NCBI GenBank assembly: GCA_964535715.1
Contig: CAZHUO010000002.1
Coordinates: 16,916-80,915 of the forward strand
DNA length: 64,000 nt
Direction of reading: 5' to 3'
Source: an uncultured Gammaproteobacteria bacterium
GTDB taxonomy: Bacteria > Patescibacteriota > Patescibacteriia > Buchananbacterales > UBA6539
Shown: piece after piece, positions 3,347-31,521 of the stretch
Layout of the letters: every line of letters starts with the position of its first letter
Numbering within the stretch: the stretch's first letter is position 1
Made by a program: the position numbers and the translations under genes
Notes under the pieces: model-generated
The model's database searches: none
What the model was told of the DNA's origin: nothing
The model's input: the letters and a program-made list of their open reading frames with translations, nothing else

Positions 3347-3760
3347 ATGCGAGTACGAGCGATTATAATTAAGGACAATAAAATAATCCTGATTAAAAGA
3401 GTAAGACCTAATGAAACATATTGGGTTTTTCCCGGTGGCGGTGTTGATTCTGGCGAAACAAAAGAAAATGCCCTAGCTAGAGAAATTAAGGAAGAATTGG
3501 GTTTGGATATTGAAGTAAAAGAATTATTTCTAAAAAGGCAATCAGATAAACCGGGAATGGAAGGTATAATGGAATACTTTTTTTCGGCAGATATTATCGG
3601 TGGTGAGCTCGGCAGTGGCGATGGTCCGGAATACCAGAGTGGTACTAATTATGAAGGTAATTACAAAATTGATTTAATTGACATTGGTGATTTAGACCAA
3701 ATCAATTTAAAACCAAAAGAAGCTAAGGATTTGGTTCTAAAATTATCTAGTCAAAAATGA
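3347..3760 (+). CDS. NUDIX hydrolase
   Basis: Nudix box GGGVDSGETKENALAREIKEELGL. Confidence 0.85.
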   Translation: MRVRAIIIKDNKIILIKRVRPNETYWVFPGGGVDSGETKENALAREIKEELGLDIEVKELFLKRQSDKPGMEGIMEYFFSADIIGGELGSGDGPEYQSGTNYEGNYKIDLIDIGDLDQINLKPKEAKDLVLKLSSQK

Positions 3761-4419: not shown

Positions 4420-4738
4420 AATAATGGAATTGGATCAAATACTAATTACTCAGACTTAAAAACAGGACACACCAGTGTCCGATTTTTGGGACAGCACAAT
4501 ATCCCTGTCCCGTGTCCGATTTGTCCAATTTTGTAGAATTAGGCCTGACCGAGATGCCTCAAACTCGCCTCTAGTAAATACTCTAAATAACCCTTATAAT
4601 GCTTGTAAAGTTTCGGTTCTAGACCGAGGTACACTGCCAGAAAATCGCCGAAGAGGCGTTTTTTTGCCTGTCCGCCTCTCTGGCTCGCCATTCGGTGGCT
4701 TGCGGGGTATAATGTAACTAATAATTAATTCCATTATT
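4420..4738. repeat. IR-bounded GC-rich non-coding island (candidate ncRNA, regulatory array or MITE-like insert)
   Basis: A perfect 12-bp inverted repeat, AATAATGGAATT (4420-4431) / AATTCCATTATT (4727-4738), encloses palindromes GGACAC-acca-GTGTCC (4465-4480) and GGGACAG-N10-CTGTCCC (4488-4511), direct repeats GTGTCCGATTT (4475-4485, 4512-4522) and a terminator. Confidence 0.45.
4641..4665 (+). terminator. Intrinsic terminator inside the non-coding island
   Basis: aaaatCGCC-gaaga-GGCG followed by seven T (4659-4665). The stem is short (4 GC pairs). Confidence 0.45.
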
Positions 4739-4754
4739 TTTAACCAATATCATT

Positions 4755-5090
4755 ATGCAATTTCTAATCAATTGGCTAATCTATACTTTAGCCATTATCA
4801 TTACCGCCTATTTGCTGCCGGGCGCAACGATTGAAAGCCTTTTTGCCGCATTTGTTTTGGCTTTGGTTTTGGGGTTGATTAACGCGGTTTTAAAGCCGAT
4901 AATAATTATTTTGACTTTGCCGATTAATATTTTAACCCTGGGACTTTTGACATTGGTGATTAACGCCTTACTGGTGATGCTGGCCGATTTTATTGTGCCG
5001 GGTTTTTCCGTTGGCAGTTTTTGGTGGGCGCTTTTATTCAGCATCATTTTGTCAATTATCAATCTGGTGTTAAGCCGGATTAAAGAGTAA
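4755..5090 (+). CDS. Phage holin family IV / DUF360 (YvlD-like) membrane protein
   Basis: 111 aa, about four TM segments, LGLINAVLKPIIIILTLPINILTLGLLTLVINAL pattern typical of this family. Confidence 0.7.
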   Translation: MQFLINWLIYTLAIIITAYLLPGATIESLFAAFVLALVLGLINAVLKPIIIILTLPINILTLGLLTLVINALLVMLADFIVPGFSVGSFWWALLFSIILSIINLVLSRIKE

Positions 5091-5185: not shown

Positions 5186-5214
5186 TTGACTGAGTTTTGA
5201 GGCGGGTATATAAT
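5186..5214 (+). promoter_or_regulatory. Near-consensus sigma70 promoter
   Basis: TTGACT (5186-5191), 17 nt, TATAAT (5209-5214), about 120 nt upstream of ATG 5337. Confidence 0.5.
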
Positions 5215-5267
5215 ACCAAAGCTAATTATTTAATCGAGATTGTTATGGTAAAAACCGTAAATAATCA

Positions 5268-5366
5268 ACCCCGCACTAATTTTATAATCAATTTTATAAA
5301 TATATCTTTTAATTATAATTATTTAATAATAAATGTATGACTCAAAACACTAAATTAGTGCGGGGT
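5268..5366. repeat. 15-bp perfect GC-rich inverted repeat bracketing the start codon of ORF 5337
   Basis: ACCCCGCACTAATTT (5268-5282) / AAATTAGTGCGGGGT (5352-5366), 69-nt AT-rich spacer. It shares the 12-mer CCCCGCACTAAT with 15634-15645. Confidence 0.8.
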
Positions 5367-5663
5367 CAACATAGCGCAACAATTGATGACGTTTTAGAGG
5401 CAGTCAATATTTTTGCCGACGAAACTCATCAGGAGTTTAGTCATGTCAAAGGCGAGATATCGGAGATTAATAGTAACATAACAAGAATGGTTACCAAAGA
5501 TTACCTGGATGACAAGATGTCGGATTTAAGAGGCGATTTAGTAGTGATGATGAGAAAAGAAGATAATAAGCTAAAAACTCTGGTCGGTGTATTAAAAGAA
5601 AAGTCAGTTTTAGATAGCAGTGATGTCAGCCGGATATATTCAATGGAGCCTTTTGCTCAATAA
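5337..5663 (+). CDS. Hypothetical protein (coiled-coil-like)
   Basis: 108-aa ORF with a promoter upstream and a terminator downstream. No family recognised. Confidence 0.55.
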   Translation: MTQNTKLVRGQHSATIDDVLEAVNIFADETHQEFSHVKGEISEINSNITRMVTKDYLDDKMSDLRGDLVVMMRKEDNKLKTLVGVLKEKSVLDSSDVSRIYSMEPFAQ

Positions 5664-5682: not shown

Positions 5683-5706
5683 AGCCCGCCATTGGCGGCT
5701 TTTTTG
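5683..5706 (+). terminator. Intrinsic terminator
   Basis: AGCCCGCC-att-GGCGGCT followed by a T-run (5700-5705). Confidence 0.7.
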
Positions 5707-13975: not shown

Positions 13976-14008
13976 AAAAATAGCACCTTCATTACGGAGG
14001 TGCTTTTT
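13976..14008. terminator. Bidirectional intrinsic terminator
   Basis: aaaaa-GCACCTTC-attac-GGAGGTGC-ttttt, between convergent ORFs. Confidence 0.7.
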
Positions 14009-14210
14009 AATGGTTTTTTTTGCCACCTATGGGCAAAATTTCGCCACAGCGAGAGCATGGCTCGCAGCCTTTTATTTTGTGTCCGACCCATGAACACCAA
14101 AGAGCATACCAAATCCATTTTTTTAGAATAATTTTCCTTTCCTCTGAAATTGAACTCTTGCCGTTTTTTTTTGCGATTTCTTTTGCGCCGTTTCTGTGAT
14201 TTTTTTTCAT
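14007..14210 (-). CDS. Small Lys-rich hypothetical protein with C-terminal CX2CX2C
   Basis: 67-aa ORF with GGGTGAG upstream of the ATG. WCSWVGHKIKGCEPCSRCGE. The Cys-coding part coincides with a GC hairpin, so it may be non-coding. Confidence 0.3.
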   Translation of the reverse strand: MKKNHRNGAKEIAKKNGKSSISEERKIILKKWIWYALWCSWVGHKIKGCEPCSRCGEILPIGGKKNH

Positions 14211-14286
14211 TTTCTCACCCTTTTAAGTTAGTATGGATTAGTCCTAAACAGCAAAGGATGATACTTTTATATTACTTCAATTTAAT

Positions 14287-14308
14287 AAAAAAAGCCATCT
14301 ATGATGGC
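14287..14308 (-). terminator. Intrinsic terminator (minus strand), about 175 nt downstream of the L,D-transpeptidase stop
   Basis: On the minus strand: GCCATC-ata-GATGGC followed by TTTTTTT. Confidence 0.55.
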
Positions 14309-14484
14309 GTAGTATTAATATGTAAATTATTATTAAATCCTAAACTCTAAATCCTAAATCCTAAATTCCAATTCTCCAAACGTTTGGAATTTATAATTTG
14401 TTATTTAGAATTTATTCGCCGAAGGCGAATCGCCGCCATTGGCGGGCAAGCGCCTACGGCGGAGATATTAGGATTTAAAATTTC

Positions 14485-15216
14485 TTATCGGCCTTCTTTT
14501 TTATCAAACTCTTTATTTTGGATTTCAACCAGTGTCGCTTTCGGCACAGTATCAAATAATTCAATGACGTCTTTATTTATCATCCGAATACAGCCATGGG
14601 AAGCCGGCTCGCCGATAAGGCCTTCCTCGTTAGTTCCATGAATAAATATGCCCCTTTGAGCGGAATTATCATTTATTCCTTTTTCCAAACCCTCAAGCGC
14701 TAAAAGCCTGGTAGTCATTAAATCACTAGGTGCTTGGACGTGCTCGGTATATATTGTAGTTTTGCCTTTTTTGCTTTGTTTTTCAAAAACAGTCCCTAAC
14801 TCTGCATTGTCGCCGATTTTAGCAGATATGCGGTGAGTTCCAAAAGGCGTTTTATTGCTATTATTTTTATTGCTAATACCTTTGGCAGCGGTTGAAATAT
14901 TATATGATTTGACAATTTGGTTATCTTTTACAAGAAGCATTTCCTGACGTTCAGGGTTAATGACTATGGCGAATTCTTCGGGTTTTAAATTGAAGTTGCT
15001 GGTTAATTTTTCTACGCTTTCCTTGATTTCTTCCCAGATTTGCTCCGGCGTTCTTTCTTGCTCTTTTTGTTCTGCGTCAGCTGATTTTAAAGAAAGCAGT
15101 TCTTTGGCAGCTAAAGCGCCAAAAAAGGCCTGTTTTAAAAATTCACGACGAGTTGGCTTGTTATTTTTTTCAGTTTTAGATTCTTCCGTTTCCGGATTAA
15201 ATGTTTCTTTTTCCAT
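14485..15216 (-). CDS. L,D-transpeptidase (YkuD family) with a Tat-like signal
   Basis: [15 protein letters not shown]. Catalytic [23 protein letters not shown]. Confidence 0.85.
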
Positions 15217-15236
15217 AAGAAATAATGTAATTTATT

Positions 15237-15585
15237 GGCGACGTAGGGCGAGAGTCCCGCACCTATTTTACTCATCAATCATTTTCAAGATTAATTTTTT
15301 CTACAGTATAAAATAAATTATTTAACCTAAACAGTGATCAGTAAAATAGGTGCGGGATCTAGTTAAGCCGCTACGACGCAGGTTTAATTAATGAATCTTA
15401 TCGTGAAAAGGGAGCCATCAAAGGGTGAAATACCCGAAAGCGCTCCGTCGCCAAAGCGGTACTTATCCAGTTTTGACGCGTCAACGACTTGTCCCGATTA
15501 ATCCTTCGCCTTTGGCGGAGTGAAAAATCTTAGATCCCGTCTTATTCATATCTAATTATAAAGCGGGACTCCGTGGTTAATACCC
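15237..15585. mobile_element. 349-bp GC-rich structured non-coding insertion with a 6-bp TTTATT target duplication (MITE-like / mobile ncRNA candidate)
   Basis: The string ATAATGTAATTTATTAAATATATT-TGG is contiguous at 16122-16148. Here it is split after TTTATT (15231-15236) and resumes with TTTATT (15586-15591). Subterminal IR GAGTCCCGC / GCGGGACTC. An 18-bp stem at 15255-15272 / 15340-15357. Confidence 0.5.
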
Positions 15586-15600
15586 TTTATTAAATATATT

Positions 15601-15765
15601 TGGTCGGGCTGGGGAGATTCGAACTCCCGACCTCCCCGCACTAATGTCCGCGAATTGGCATTTTTGAAATTTAAAGTTAGATTAGCGCGAACACCGCCTG
15701 CGGCTGGTATTTCAAGAGATGAGACAAGATAATAGACATGGTGCGGGGCAGGCATCATCCCGAAC
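15601..15765 (-). pseudogene. Disrupted tRNA-Pro remnant (3' part only, interrupted by a 119-bp insert)
   Basis: 15601-15633 is identical to the CCA, acceptor, T arm and variable loop of the intact tRNA. 15753-15765 (catcatcccgaac) is a mutated anticodon stem/loop. No 5' half is present. Confidence 0.7.
15634..15752. repeat. 119-bp IR-flanked insert at the variable-loop/anticodon-stem junction of the tRNA remnant
   Basis: CCCCGCAC (15634-15641) and GTGCGGGG (15741-15748). The same CCCCGCACTAAT word occurs at 5270-5281. Confidence 0.55.
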
Positions 15766-15790
15766 TTAAGTAAAGCAATTTTTAATTCTC

Positions 15791-15847
15791 TCGGGCTGGG
15801 GAGATTCGAACTCCCGACCTCATCGTCCCGAACGATGCGCGCTAGCC
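15791..15847 (-). pseudogene. tRNA-Pro 3' fragment (D-loop to acceptor, no CCA)
   Basis: 57 of 57 identical to 16149-16205 of the intact tRNA. It diverges on both sides. Confidence 0.8.
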
Positions 15848-16123
15848 CCCGCCAGAGGCGGGTCGGCCTTTGGCGGAAGCTGCTCTAATAATTATATTAC
15901 GAACTTGTCTTCCAAATCCACTTTTGTAAAATTTTTCTCTCATAATAGCATCCTGTTCGCATAAGTATTTTTCAAAATATAATAATATTAGATGACCATT
16001 CTCACGTGTCCATTTGTTCGATTTCTGATTATGTTGTTTTAATCTGTCTTCTGGATTAATTTTTGAGTAACCGACGTATATCTTTCCATTTTTTATACTT
16101 TTTAAAAAATATACATAAAACAT
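15842..16123 (-). CDS. GIY-YIG nuclease family protein
   Basis: MFYVYFLKSIKNGKIYVGYS...RLKQHN...REKFYKS. The stop TAG (15842-15844) lies inside the tRNA fragment. The GC-hairpin-encoded tail is AASAKGRPASGGG. Confidence 0.75.
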   Translation of the reverse strand: MFYVYFLKSIKNGKIYVGYSKINPEDRLKQHNQKSNKWTRENGHLILLYFEKYLCEQDAIMREKFYKSGFGRQVRNIIIRAASAKGRPASGGG

Positions 16124-16145
16124 AATGTAATTTATTAAATATATT

Positions 16146-16222
16146 TGGTCGGGCTGGGGAGATTCGAACTCCCGACCTCATCGTCCCGAACGATGCGCGC
16201 TAGCCAGCTGCGCTACAGCCCG
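16146..16222 (-). tRNA. tRNA-Pro (anticodon CGG), CCA encoded
   Basis: CGGGCTG-TA-GCGC-AGCTGGCTA-GCGC-G-CATCG-TTCGGGA-CGATG-AGGTC-GGGAG-TTCGAAT-CTCCC-CAGCCCG-A-CCA folds as a canonical 77-nt cloverleaf. Confidence 0.9.
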
Positions 16223-16311
16223 ATAAATAGCGATTAACCAATAACGGTTAACAGTCAATTATTATAGTTTATATTCTTTTTAGTATAAAATCAAGTTTAA
16301 GCCAAAAAGAT

Positions 16312-16347
16312 AAGGCCGCGTCATTTTGCAATAACGCGGCCTTTTTT
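16312..16347. terminator. Bidirectional hairpin terminator
   Basis: AAGGCCGCG (16312-16320) / CGCGGCCTT (16335-16343), T-run on plus, ATCTTTTT on minus. It lies downstream of the minus-strand gene at 16364. Confidence 0.6.
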
Positions 16348-16363
16348 GCGGGTTTTGGGGGAA

Positions 16364-16786
16364 TTATTTTTTCATAGAATCCCTTACTCTTTTTCTAGCC
16401 ATTACAAGCCAGAACATCTCGCAGGCGCTTATGTTAAGCGCAATGCCGAGAATCATGAGTAATAATCCAAATATTCCCTTTTGGGATGTCAGTAATGGAA
16501 TCGCAACAAGTGCAATTCCTAAACTTATCTGACATGCCCACCAGTACGGGTATTTGCGTGCGATTCTGCGGTGCGTCTTATTGGTAGCATCGCAAAAAAC
16601 CAAGCTTGCATAGGATATGAAGACGCCTAACCAAATGATTAACGTCCATATCATGCAAAGCATAGCCATCTCGGAAATTTTGCTGTAACGATCCGGATAA
16701 AACCTGTAGACCCAGCCAAACAGCACCATTATGCCGAGCAGCGCACAACACAGCTTTCCCATTCCATTCTTGTAATACCTGGTCAC
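16364..16786 (-). CDS. Hypothetical four-TM membrane protein, compositionally atypical
   Basis: 140 aa. GTG start with AGGAG 7 nt upstream. Sampled 60-nt lines give 22-30 G+C per 60, against about 17-20 per 60 in neighbouring genes. Confidence 0.6.
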   Translation of the reverse strand: MTRYYKNGMGKLCCALLGIMVLFGWVYRFYPDRYSKISEMAMLCMIWTLIIWLGVFISYASLVFCDATNKTHRRIARKYPYWWACQISLGIALVAIPLLTSQKGIFGLLLMILGIALNISACEMFWLVMARKRVRDSMKK

Positions 16787-17671: not shown

Positions 17672-17762
17672 ATCTAATATCTTAAATCTAACATCTAATA
17701 TCTACAAATTAAAAGATAAAATTCTTCATATTTTTTAGATTTAAGATCTAAGATTTAAGATT
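17672..17762. repeat. Word hairpin (ATCTTAAATCT / AGATTTAAGAT)
   Basis: ATCTTAAATCTA (17679-17690) is complementary to TAGATTTAAGAT (17736-17747) and to AGATTTAAGAT (17751-17761). Confidence 0.65.
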
Positions 17763-19021: not shown

Positions 19022-19124
19022 CTTATATCTGGCATGAAATATTGTAAATTAATCCCTTATGACTTTATAATGACGGCGGGTTTGCCGGAAAAGTTGAAGG
19101 GGAGAAAGTATCTTAAGTAAGCAC

Positions 19125-19266
19125 CAAATTCCAAATTACAAATAATAAACAAATCTCAAATTATAAATTCAAAATTCCAACGGGTAAGCTTAAGGGTTTG
19201 TGATTTGTGATTTTAAACATTGTAATTTGTTTGAAATTTGAGATTTGGAATTTGTAATTTATTATT
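19125..19266. repeat. Composite AT-rich word hairpin (AAATTCCAAAT / AAATTACAAAT / AAATCTCAAAT words)
   Basis: AAATCTCAAATT (left) / AATTTGAGATTT (right) and AAATTACAAAT / ATTTGTAATTT are complementary. It overlaps the track's extended N-terminus of the Nudix ORF. Confidence 0.6.
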
Positions 19267-19268
19267 CT

Positions 19269-19715
19269 ATGCTTCGCCAAAAAACAATCGGCATAATCAC
19301 TTTTAAGTTCGAAGGGCGGGGAATCCGCTATCTGCTTTTGCATCACGGCGGAGAATATTGGAATTTTTCCAAAGGCAGGCAGGAAGGGCTTGAAACCGAG
19401 ATAGATTCGGCTTTGCGCGAGCTCAAAGAAGAAACCGGAATTGAAAAAATTAATATTATTGAAGGCTTTAAGGATGAATATGACTATGATTTTGATACTC
19501 AAATTAAGGATGGATTAAGAAAAAAGGTCTGCAAAAAAGCGATATTTTTTTTAGGAGAAGTAATGCAGGATAAAGTAAAAATTTCCGATGAACATATTGA
19601 TTTTGGCTGGTTTGATTTTGAAACTGCTTTAGAAAGGCTATTTTATCAGGAAGGCCGTGATTCTTTGAAAAAAGCTCATCAGTTTATTTTAAAACGGCAG
19701 GATTTTGTGCTATAA
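19269..19715 (+). CDS. NUDIX hydrolase (Ap4A-hydrolase-like)
   Basis: Nudix box KGRQEGLETEIDSALRELKEETGI. I prefer ATG 19269 because 19245-19268 lies in the hairpin. Confidence 0.8.
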   Translation: MLRQKTIGIITFKFEGRGIRYLLLHHGGEYWNFSKGRQEGLETEIDSALRELKEETGIEKINIIEGFKDEYDYDFDTQIKDGLRKKVCKKAIFFLGEVMQDKVKISDEHIDFGWFDFETALERLFYQEGRDSLKKAHQFILKRQDFVL

Positions 19716-19800: not shown

Positions 19801-19879
19801 CTACGAATACGAATTCTTACGAATATACGAATCACCATTCTAAGCTATTTGTATATTCGTATTTATTCGTATTTCGTAG
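19801..19879. repeat. Word hairpin (ACGAAT / ATTCGT)
   Basis: CTACGAATACGAATTCTTACGAATATAC versus GTATATTCGTATTTATTCGTATTTCGTAG, directly before the pilT ATG. Confidence 0.7.
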
Positions 19880-31007: not shown

Positions 31008-31210
31008 TTGTCATTCTGAATTTATTACTGCTTTGTCATCCTGAATTCATTTCAGGATCCAGTAAAGCCTAGAGTGACAAGTCTAGAAAAAAAGCACCCC
31101 CTTTGTCATCCTGAAATTGGTTCAGGATCTGGAAAAGTCTAGAAAGCACCTCCTTGTCATTTCGAGCGACTCACCGAAGCCTAAAAGGCGGAGGTGAGGA
31201 GTCGAGAAAT
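31008..31210 (+). repeat. Array of four TTGTCAT(C/T)(C/T)(C/T)GA(A/G) hairpin repeats upstream of the GIY-YIG gene
   Basis: Copies at 31008, 31033, 31103 and 31154. Hairpins ATCCTGAA-n5-TTCAGGAT occur twice. TTTCGAGCGACTCACC...GGTGAGGAGTCGAGAAA also forms a hairpin. Confidence 0.75.
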
Positions 31211-31224
31211 CCCACACGTAAATT

Positions 31225-31521
31225 ATGCAAGAAAAAGAATACTATACATATATCATGATGAACAGGTGGAACACGGTTTCTTATGTCGGAATAAGCGGCG
31301 ATCTTTCCTTTAGGGTTTGGCAGCACAAAGAAAAGGTAAATGAAGGTTTTACTAAAAAATACAACATCAATAAGTTAGTTTATTATGAAACCTATGATAA
31401 TCCCGATGACGCCATTGTCAGAGAAAAACAGTTGAAACGGTGGAACAGAAAGAAAAAGGTTGATTTAATAAAAAAAGAAAATCCTGAATTTAAGGACTTA
31501 TCGGATGGTTGGGAGGTGTGA
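31225..31521 (+). CDS. GIY-YIG nuclease family protein
   Basis: YYTYIMMNRWNTVSYVGISGDLSFRVWQHK...AIVREKQLKRWNRKKK. Confidence 0.8.
   Translation: MQEKEYYTYIMMNRWNTVSYVGISGDLSFRVWQHKEKVNEGFTKKYNINKLVYYETYDNPDDAIVREKQLKRWNRKKKVDLIKKENPEFKDLSDGWEV

Follow-up and report, generated by a model that had tools for sequence, protein, structure and literature searches.

Proteins of the Ssn family, about 94 aa long, consist of a single GIY-YIG domain (CDD cd10448, GIY-YIG_unchar_3) (Chenal et al., Nat Commun 2025, PMC11893778). They are hairpin-directed ssDNA nucleases that cut beside the NTS/SRM repeat, and their genes are flanked by those repeats. Cleavage is strand-specific and falls just 5' of the hairpin (PMC11893778). 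The authors of that work noted the IS-like layout and an analogy to REP/RAYT, and raised mobility as a hypothesis only. The NTS repeat of Neisseria (dRS3) is rarely found inside genes, at 2% in N. meningitidis 8013 (PMC11893778).

We analyzed a hairpin, site A (5268-5366), in a 64-kb stretch of DNA, referred to here as the window. It belongs to a family with the arm motif (C/T)CCCGCAC/GTGCGGG(G/A), whose closest known counterpart is the Ssn system. Like the Ssn system, the CCCGCAC family includes a small (80-100 aa) single-domain GIY-YIG gene bracketed by hairpin-forming inverted repeats, alongside numerous dispersed hairpins that lack an ORF. The stem core of the NTS, ...CATTCCCGCG/GCGGGAAT..., resembles that of the family, and some family copies (L103, L093) are preceded by (GT)CAT as the NTS is. 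The association with a small GIY-YIG protein (~80-100 aa) that marks the Ssn system is found in the family and not at site A, which is ORF-less. The two systems differ in several respects. In the family the gene lies inside one split hairpin, whereas an Ssn gene lies between two complete hairpins of 20-50 nt. The family loops are 50-270 nt long rather than 0-5 nt. Target duplications and a demonstrable empty site are found for the family. Its copies also occur within RNA genes (rRNA, RNase P RNA, T-box, tRNA) and in first codons, the latter with putative translational coupling. The published SRM pattern, HGTCWY-N0-2-YYVSBRH-N0-5-WNVSBRG-N0-2-RNCYNB, had no matches in the window. We regard the family as a variant on the Ssn/SRM system and on palindromic mobile elements, with a split hairpin, large loops and target duplications.

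Other described systems share some of these features. The Rickettsia palindromic elements (RPE, PMC2229807) are also palindromes of ~100 bp that occur in protein-coding and RNA genes without being lethal, and like site A they are partly translated within the host protein. RPE copies, however, are in frame and translated throughout, whereas the frame at site A is broken and would be rescued by stop-start re-initiation. RPE copies are also alike along their whole length, while copies of the CCCGCAC family are alike in their arms only. Extended hairpins at the tips of 16S and 23S rRNA helices are common to the family, to IVS and to the rRNA insertions of CPR bacteria. Some insertions in CPR rRNA genes carry GIY-YIG ORFs without being group I or group II introns (Tsurumaki et al. 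2024, PMC11270868). Many other insertions there are short, ORF-less and unclassified (PMC11270868). That study defines no shared arms, no non-rRNA targets and no link between ORF-less and GIY-YIG insertions, in which it differs from what we describe. The insertions it reports may be the same elements as our family.

The REP/BIME repeats with their RAYT, and IS200/IS605, resemble the family in having dispersed hairpin repeats, a presumed mobilizing gene flanked by inverted repeats and proposed recognition of ssDNA hairpins. They use a Y1 HUH transposase that forms covalent intermediates and rejoins the DNA, with no target duplication. The putative enzyme of the family is instead a GIY-YIG hydrolase, and 4 bp are duplicated at site A. 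We rejected identity with either system on both the kind of enzyme and the target duplication. Integron attC sites (R''/R' boxes RYYYAAC ... GTTRRRY) were rejected as well: the GTTRRRY consensus is absent from the flanks, the copies are single and no integrase was seen. A group I or II intron was rejected for lack of an Rfam match at gathering score.

A 101-bp insertion in a conserved Patescibacteria gene

The two arms of site A, ACCCCGCACTAATTT (5268-5282) and AAATTAGTGCGGGGT (5352-5366), are perfectly complementary over 15 bp and are separated by a 69-nt AT-rich spacer. The spacer contains ATG 5337, a start codon 15 nt before the right arm. Read as AAA TTA GTG CGG GGT (KLVRG), the right arm supplies codons 6-10 of ORF 5337-5663. 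The initial annotation had described this GC-rich repeat around a start codon, and its sequence, coordinates, spacer length and KLVRG reading were all correct. The G+C content of the window is 35.0%. In the 64 kb, only site A and site C (below) have a perfect inverted repeat of 15 bp or longer within 150 bp; a first-order Markov simulation gave a mean of 0.13 such repeats. Similarly, CCCCGCAC has four matches in the window against 0.55 expected, and four were reached in 0 of 100 shuffles. The RNA fold of 5222-5400 has a z-score of -4.1 and contains the stem in both the minimum-energy and centroid structures, with the antisense fold of site A slightly stronger than the sense-strand fold.

As now read, the host gene (5337-5663, + strand) codes for a conserved Patescibacteria protein of 108 aa with 258 homologues; an exact-protein look-up of the site A ORF product gave no record. 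Upstream is a promoter-like site (5186-5214, + strand) with TTGACT, a 17-nt spacer and TATAAT, matching 11 of 12 consensus positions, and a terminator-like stem follows the gene at 5686-5698. Through the homologue search we reached four orthologous loci (L001-L004). All read uninterrupted through ...AACAATCAACATAGC... with a single TCAA, and they have the leader, the ATG and the promoter-like site, with both hexamers unchanged across the four, in common with the window. At the orthologous position the window reads AATAATCAA-(97 bp)-TCAACATAGC. Because the four loci share the promoter, leader and ATG and continue without interruption, the window carries a 101-bp insertion. It is placed after codon 8 and is made up of a 97-bp ORF-less palindromic element (5269-5365; arms CCCCGCACTAATTT / AAATTAGTGCGGGG around the AT-rich 69-nt interior) and a second TCAA.

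Alignment with the empty site places the two copies of TCAA at 5264-5267 and 5366-5369 (both + strand). The protein comparison gives the same junctions. Close homologues start MVKTVNNQHSAT or MAKTVNNQH, and MVKTVNNQHSAT is exactly what flanks both arms in the window: immediately left of the left arm is ATG GTA AAA ACC GTA AAT AAT CAA (MVKTVNNQ, from ATG 5245), and immediately right of the right arm is CAT AGC GCA ACA (HSAT). At the level of sequence comparison, then, site A is an insertion with a 4-bp TCAA target duplication in a conserved Patescibacteria gene. By the initial annotation, a lack of further copies and orthologues that keep the arms as conserved coding or promoter sequence would have refuted a hairpin element; the opposite was found, a precise empty site.

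The arms of the family and the nucleases between them

To place site A in a wider context, one genome per species was scanned for the arm pair CCCGCACYWATT-N50-80-AATWRGTGCGGG. At least 117 contigs matched, where about one chance match is expected by hand arithmetic with equal base frequencies assumed and no tool used. Among the matches listed, the hosts are mostly Planctomycetota (Pirellulales, Phycisphaerae, Sedimentisphaerales) and Patescibacteria (Moranbacteria, Buchananbacteria, Saccharibacteria), with a few contigs labeled as other phyla. The copies fall into classes of ~75-82 and 98-104 nt within a length range, 74-104, that the scan pattern itself set and that perhaps clips the upper class. 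The scan also forced perfect 12-nt arms, so that the conservation of the arms is partly due to the search. Two arm positions were left degenerate, and they are complementary in 111 of the 119 copies listed against 52 expected; in 104 of the 119, pairing extends past the forced 12 nt. The interiors fall into 104 unrelated clusters among 122 elements, and six copies in one Planctomycetaceae genome have their arms alone in common. Since the interiors are unrelated even within one genome, the sequence comparison shows the arms to be the conserved part of the family and the interiors to be hypervariable. A literature search with the arm sequences matched unrelated PCR primers only.

Exact 4-bp flanking repeats were found in 6 of the 117 copies listed (TTGA three times, TCAA, CTAA and CGAG), about 9 times the mean of 0.70 in permutations. 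About 90% of family copies have no exact 4-bp duplication. We therefore rejected a universal target duplication, as the exact repeats are in the minority and some AT/GC dinucleotides could equally be arm extensions.

The small hairpin-element family suggested in the initial annotation is borne out and is much larger than proposed, with a third copy in the window, at least 117 contigs elsewhere and orthologous loci without the element. The third copy is site C (15255-15357), a 103-bp hairpin with a perfect outer 18 bp (TCCCGCACCTATTTTACT / AGTAAAATAGGTGCGGGA) that lies 38 nt upstream of the ATG of ORF 14485-15216 (- strand) and had been overlooked. The second, site B (15634-15748), is a 115-bp hairpin with divergent inner arms. 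The interiors of site B and a copy elsewhere (L033) have a weak, partly palindromic likeness (CCGCCTGCGGCT, GAGATGA).

Site B had been noticed through the recurrence of CCCCGCACTAAT (15634-15645) and was described as a 119-bp insert in a tRNA locus closed by GTGCGGGG (15741-15748). These positions are accurate, and relative to the intact tRNA-Pro the extra DNA (15634-15752) is exactly 119 nt, hairpin B plus CCTG. The insert is real, but its host is a partial duplicated tRNA-Pro copy rather than a functional tRNA. This copy (15601-15765, - strand) runs from the anticodon loop to the CCA and is split between the anticodon stem and the variable loop by CCTG and hairpin B. Read along the minus strand, the locus consists of the intact tRNA-Pro(CGG) (16146-16222), then a single-domain GIY-YIG nuclease ORF of 93 aa (15842-16123), another partial tRNA-Pro copy (15791-15861) and the copy split by hairpin B. 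The partial copy at 15791-15861 runs from the D-loop to the 3' strand of the acceptor without a CCA and overlaps the GIY-YIG ORF at its 3' end. Both the intact tRNA-Pro and the copy at 15601-15765 are followed by an identical stretch of 15 nt (AATATATTTAATAAA). A tRNA intron or permuted tmRNA at site B was considered and rejected, as ARAGORN finds the intact tRNA-Pro only. A tmRNA-like match at 15601-15762 scored 16.7 bits against a gathering score of 47 and is merely a tRNA-like 3' end. Rfam covariance models gave no match at gathering score and none that was meaningful at E up to 5 for 14000-16400; the sub-threshold matches included meaningless ones of miRNA precursors to the long hairpin C.

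The GIY-YIG ORF beside site B matches Pfam PF01541 only. It lies 94 bp from hairpin B, has no enclosing CCCGCAC arms and is 41% identical to one of the arm-enclosed nucleases described below. We considered it as the cognate nuclease of the CCCGCAC hairpins and judged this assignment improbable. Each of its relatives begins 1-2 nt downstream of a tRNA-Pro or tRNA-Val and finishes in a duplicate of the 3' part of the tRNA. They carry a different palindromic motif, TTCCGCCAAAGGCGG, and are never flanked by CCCGCAC arms. Because its relatives carry this other motif at tRNA 3' ends, the ORF is probably not the enzyme of the CCCGCAC hairpins and is probably paired with a different hairpin motif. Another GIY-YIG ORF in the window (31225-31521) is preceded by three GTCAT-led hairpins in a layout loosely like the published Ssn/SRM arrangement, and the three have no match to the published SRM pattern. 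Three types of hairpin are thus present in the window, and a GIY-YIG gene adjoins two of them; for the CCCGCAC type, no arm-enclosed nuclease was found in the 64 kb.

Such nucleases are found elsewhere. When metagenomes were scanned for these arms at a spacing of 245-275 nt, 24 loci were obtained. An ORF for a GIY-YIG protein of 80-91 aa fills the space between the arms in about 17 of 25 elements (279-296 bp). The arrangement is also seen in L120, where an 84-aa GIY-YIG ORF lies exactly within an 18-bp perfect family repeat, TCCCGCACTAATTTTTGC ... GCAAAAATTAGTGCGGGA. The arm-enclosed ORFs match Pfam PF01541 only, and their closest solved relative is the UPF0213 protein BH0048 (1zg2, E = 7e-7). 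This single-domain nuclease is the sole kind of gene found between family arms. ORF-less and ORF-bearing copies adjoin each other at two loci (L120 and L129). A nuclease-bearing element lies in P12 of an RNase P RNA gene (L145), and others, with a TAAA repeat, lie at codon 3 of pstB-like and trpF-like genes. In these two protein genes (L128, pstB-like; L125, trpF-like) translation from the host ATG gives MVNPRTNC and continues in frame into the nuclease, whose TGA overlaps a further ATG from which MTIGAG leads into the host protein. Both the PRTN frame of the left arm and the ATGA overlap recur at site A, but without a nuclease. We found no significant tblastn match to a nuclease remnant in ORF-less interiors (best E-value 0.046). 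An origin of the ORF-less hairpins from the nuclease gene by internal deletion is thus unsupported, with the arms alone shown to be shared, and the nuclease gene may have lodged in the hairpin loop secondarily.

Our preferred explanation, to which we assign a probability of roughly 70%, is that site A is a non-autonomous copy of a mobile hairpin family whose movement is driven by an Ssn-like nuclease and whose host gene is rescued by re-initiation. By analogy with Ssn, the nuclease would recognize the ssDNA hairpin formed by the two arms (CCCGCACC-loop-GGTGCGGG) and cut beside it. Host repair or ligation would then complete the movement, and ORF-less copies, sites A, B and C among them, would depend on movement in trans. 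Several points weigh against this reading: a GIY-YIG hydrolase alone cannot join DNA at the integration step, the window has no nuclease enclosed by CCCGCAC arms, ORF-less interiors show no nuclease remnant, and most family copies lack an exact 4-bp duplication.

The hairpins might instead be ordinary MITEs, deletion derivatives of a DDE-transposase IS with the arms as terminal inverted repeats and the GIY-YIG ORFs as passengers. The 15-bp inverted repeats and clean TCAA duplication at site A would fit, as would the enrichment of 4-bp duplications in the family, and the arms co-vary as transposase-bound ends would, but no transposase-sized ORF lies between family arms in ~140 loci (arm spacings scanned up to 600 bp). 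The single long-range arm pair that was inspected (L092) encloses no recognizable transposase ORF either, and the ~85-aa GIY-YIG gene is the only ORF that is repeatedly and exactly enclosed. The unrelated interiors within one genome are also unlike those of burst-amplified MITEs. We consider a MITE origin improbable.

Copies in RNA genes and in first codons

We identified the RNA genes around family copies with Rfam. Two copies lie in 16S rRNA genes, in the apical loop of one 5'-domain helix at model positions ~140-160 (L038 and L103), and two in the 3' domain of 23S rRNA genes (L068 and L101). All four form an extended stem-loop at the tip of an rRNA helix, a feature that does not apply to site A, and are near-perfect helices of ~45 bp. 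A T-box leader holds another copy (L065), and one begins 3 nt after a tRNA gene (L081). Four copies are present in a single RNase P RNA gene (L064), which is 714 nt long against a model of 367 positions. They stand in place of the peripheral helices P3 and P12 and at two more positions in the 3' half. Elsewhere, copies adjoin or lie ahead of a start codon (L118, L102 and L052) or fall within N-terminal codons (L033).

The hairpins in or beside oriented RNA genes (16S, 23S, T-box and post-tRNA) fold better on the sense strand in 6 of 6 cases, by 4-23 kcal/mol. With two RNase P hairpins added, the sense strand is better in 7 of 8. This points to G-U pairs and selection for a self-contained RNA helix.

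Copies in essential structured RNAs, four of them in one RNase P RNA, might also be intervening sequences that are excised at the RNA level, with RNase III cutting or a cut-and-ligate splicing reaction restoring the host RNA or mRNA. The ~45-bp rRNA helices are typical RNase III substrates. Better folding of the sense strand is in keeping with excision as well, but is equally expected from selection for a self-contained, harmless helix. At site A, taking out 101 nt would restore the native frame; yet there and in the pstB-like and trpF-like genes the frames are set for translation through the arms and for an ATGA overlap, which would be pointless if the hairpin were spliced out. Rfam gave no group I or group II intron signature, and we know of no bacterial ligating splicing system for such hairpins. 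We consider excision unlikely.

The start codons of the host gene bear on how it tolerates the element. Judged by the homologue N-termini and the DNA alignment with L001-L004, the native ancestral start is ATG 5245 (5245-5247), which the insertion has cut off, and ATG 5337 is an element-borne replacement. The native ATG and the first eight codons, MVKTVNNQ (5245-5268, + strand), are severed from the gene. The frame from ATG 5245 crosses the left arm (QPRTN...) and the AT-rich interior (MVKTVNNQPRTNFIINFINISFNYNYLIINV) and stops at TGA 5338-5340, which overlaps the new start ATG 5337-5339 as ATGA (5337-5340, + strand). The first 10 residues of ORF 5337-5663, MTQNTKLVRG, are derived from the element and are followed by QHSAT... 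When interiors were shuffled at constant composition, 5.2% gained an in-frame rescue ATG and 0.95% a stop and a start within 4 nt.

This arrangement suggests how the gene could still be expressed. Ribosomes would load at ATG 5245, the native start that follows the conserved promoter and leader, and translation through the left arm (QPRTN...) would melt the 15-bp stem. Termination at TGA 5338-5340 would then be followed by re-initiation at the overlapping ATG 5337. The product would be a normal protein with MTQNTKLVRG in place of MVKTVNN, a change confined to poorly conserved first residues. All 21 invariant residues lie at or beyond residue 52, downstream of the insertion, in a homologue set that shares them with the window protein by construction. 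We infer that termination and re-initiation is the most likely route by which the host gene survives.

A host cis-regulatory hairpin, evolved to hide or expose the start of ORF 5337, could account for the stable fold (with the stem in both predicted structures) and for the start codon in the loop, but it is very improbable. None of the four orthologous loci, all with the promoter and native start, has the hairpin; the arms are those of a mobile family spread over unrelated genes and phyla; and ATG 5337 is not the ancestral start. Control of ORF 5337 translation had been offered in the initial annotation as an alternative to a hairpin element. As evolved control this does not stand; the attention drawn to the spacer ATG was well placed, as that codon serves as the replacement start. 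The hairpin-element reading is right and broader than proposed, with translation control replaced by an element-borne start codon, and the hairpin may influence translation as a side effect.

Implications for the family

If this explanation is true, the family would provide a testable case of Ssn-type GIY-YIG nucleases and hairpins acting as mobile elements, with an empty site and a 4-bp duplication. Tentatively, we suggest an undescribed class of ultra-small mobile elements that spans several bacterial phyla. Its autonomous unit of ~290 bp would carry the gene for an ~85-aa Ssn-like nuclease in the loop of its own hairpin. Together with ORF-less derivatives, it would colonize the helix tips of essential structured RNAs (RNase P RNA, 16S and 23S rRNA, T-box leaders, tRNAs) and the first codons of essential genes, where it would borrow the host start for expression of the nuclease and return translation to the host through ATGA.

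The family may explain many of the unclassified short insertions in CPR rRNA genes. It may likewise account for unusually long RNase P RNA genes, among them the 714-nt gene with four copies (L064). Gene callers will mis-assign start codons at such insertion sites, and RNA-family models will break on such insertions. New sequence-specific ssDNA cutters might be found among the arm-enclosed nucleases. For the host, in-frame entry with stop-start re-initiation would be a means by which a parasitic insert is tolerated in the first codons of essential genes.

Family hairpins in RNA genes, at gene starts and in clusters

The family hairpin, the palindromic mobile element with arms of the CCCGCAC...GTGCGGG type, is found in several genes for structured RNAs. 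In one locus (L064, 1933-2646) an RNase P RNA gene contains four family hairpins and is 714 nt long, against a model of 367 positions. The four lie at, or replace, peripheral helices: P3, P12 and, in the 3' half, two more positions. In L145 a different RNase P RNA gene has, at its P12, an element that bears a GIY-YIG gene. A T-box leader on the minus strand of L065 (6857-7160) has an internal family hairpin of 100 nt. In L115 (408-509, 676-968) a family hairpin stands about 19 nt past the 3' end of a 16S rRNA gene, and a group II intron comes after it.

Family hairpins are also found at the starts of protein-coding genes. They immediately abut the start codon in L118 and L102 (GTGCGGG|ATG), and in L052 one lies 24 nt upstream of the start of a secY-like gene. 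In L033 the hairpin falls within the N-terminal codons of an epimerase-like gene, alongside a diverged second copy of some 30 nt from the beginning of that gene.

Multiple family hairpins can occur together, as in L063 where they are arranged in tandem or nested within 200 bp (4850-5050). About 2.7 kb from this cluster, a GIY-YIG fragment adjoins two tRNA genes. The 3725-bp contig L036 has the same hairpin at both ends (13-89 and 3590-3666) with identical flanks, and may be either a tandem duplication or a small circle of about 3.58 kb.

Other inverted repeats of the window

Imperfect AT-rich inverted repeats at 14341-14414, 17672-17761, 19119-19274, and 19806-19873 consist of short motifs, CAAATT and TAAATC among them, and are unrelated to the CCCGCAC family. 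Two non-coding stretches, 15358-15600 and 4470-4720, are GC-rich within an AT-rich genome and have strong internal inverted repeats. Neither stretch has a match in Rfam; additional hairpin elements or as yet unrecognised structured RNAs are both possible identities.

The GIY-YIG ORFs of the window

A single-domain GIY-YIG ORF of 98 aa, the second in the window (31225-31521, plus strand), is directly preceded by three GTCAT-led hairpins (31035-31056, 31105-31126, and about 31146-31205) of sequence GTCATCCTGAA...TTCAGGATC. This layout is loosely like that published for the Ssn GIY-YIG ssDNA nucleases and their SRM hairpin repeats (PMC11893778), but the SRM search pattern given there does not fit these hairpins.

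The other ORF (15842-16123, minus strand) adjoins tRNA-Pro, with associated sites at 15791-15861, a partial tRNA-Pro copy, and 15508-15518. Every member of its clade (loci L146-L153) begins 1-2 nt past a tRNA-Pro or tRNA-Val gene, and all terminate within a duplicated tRNA 3' part. Common to the clade is a 3' palindromic motif, TTCCGCCAAAGGCGG..GCCTYTGGC, which has nine near-matches in the window where 0.67 would be expected. The motif is also present without an ORF in L149, within a tRNA D-loop-like sequence. Together, the clade and its motif look like a second hairpin/nuclease pairing, one that targets tRNA genes.
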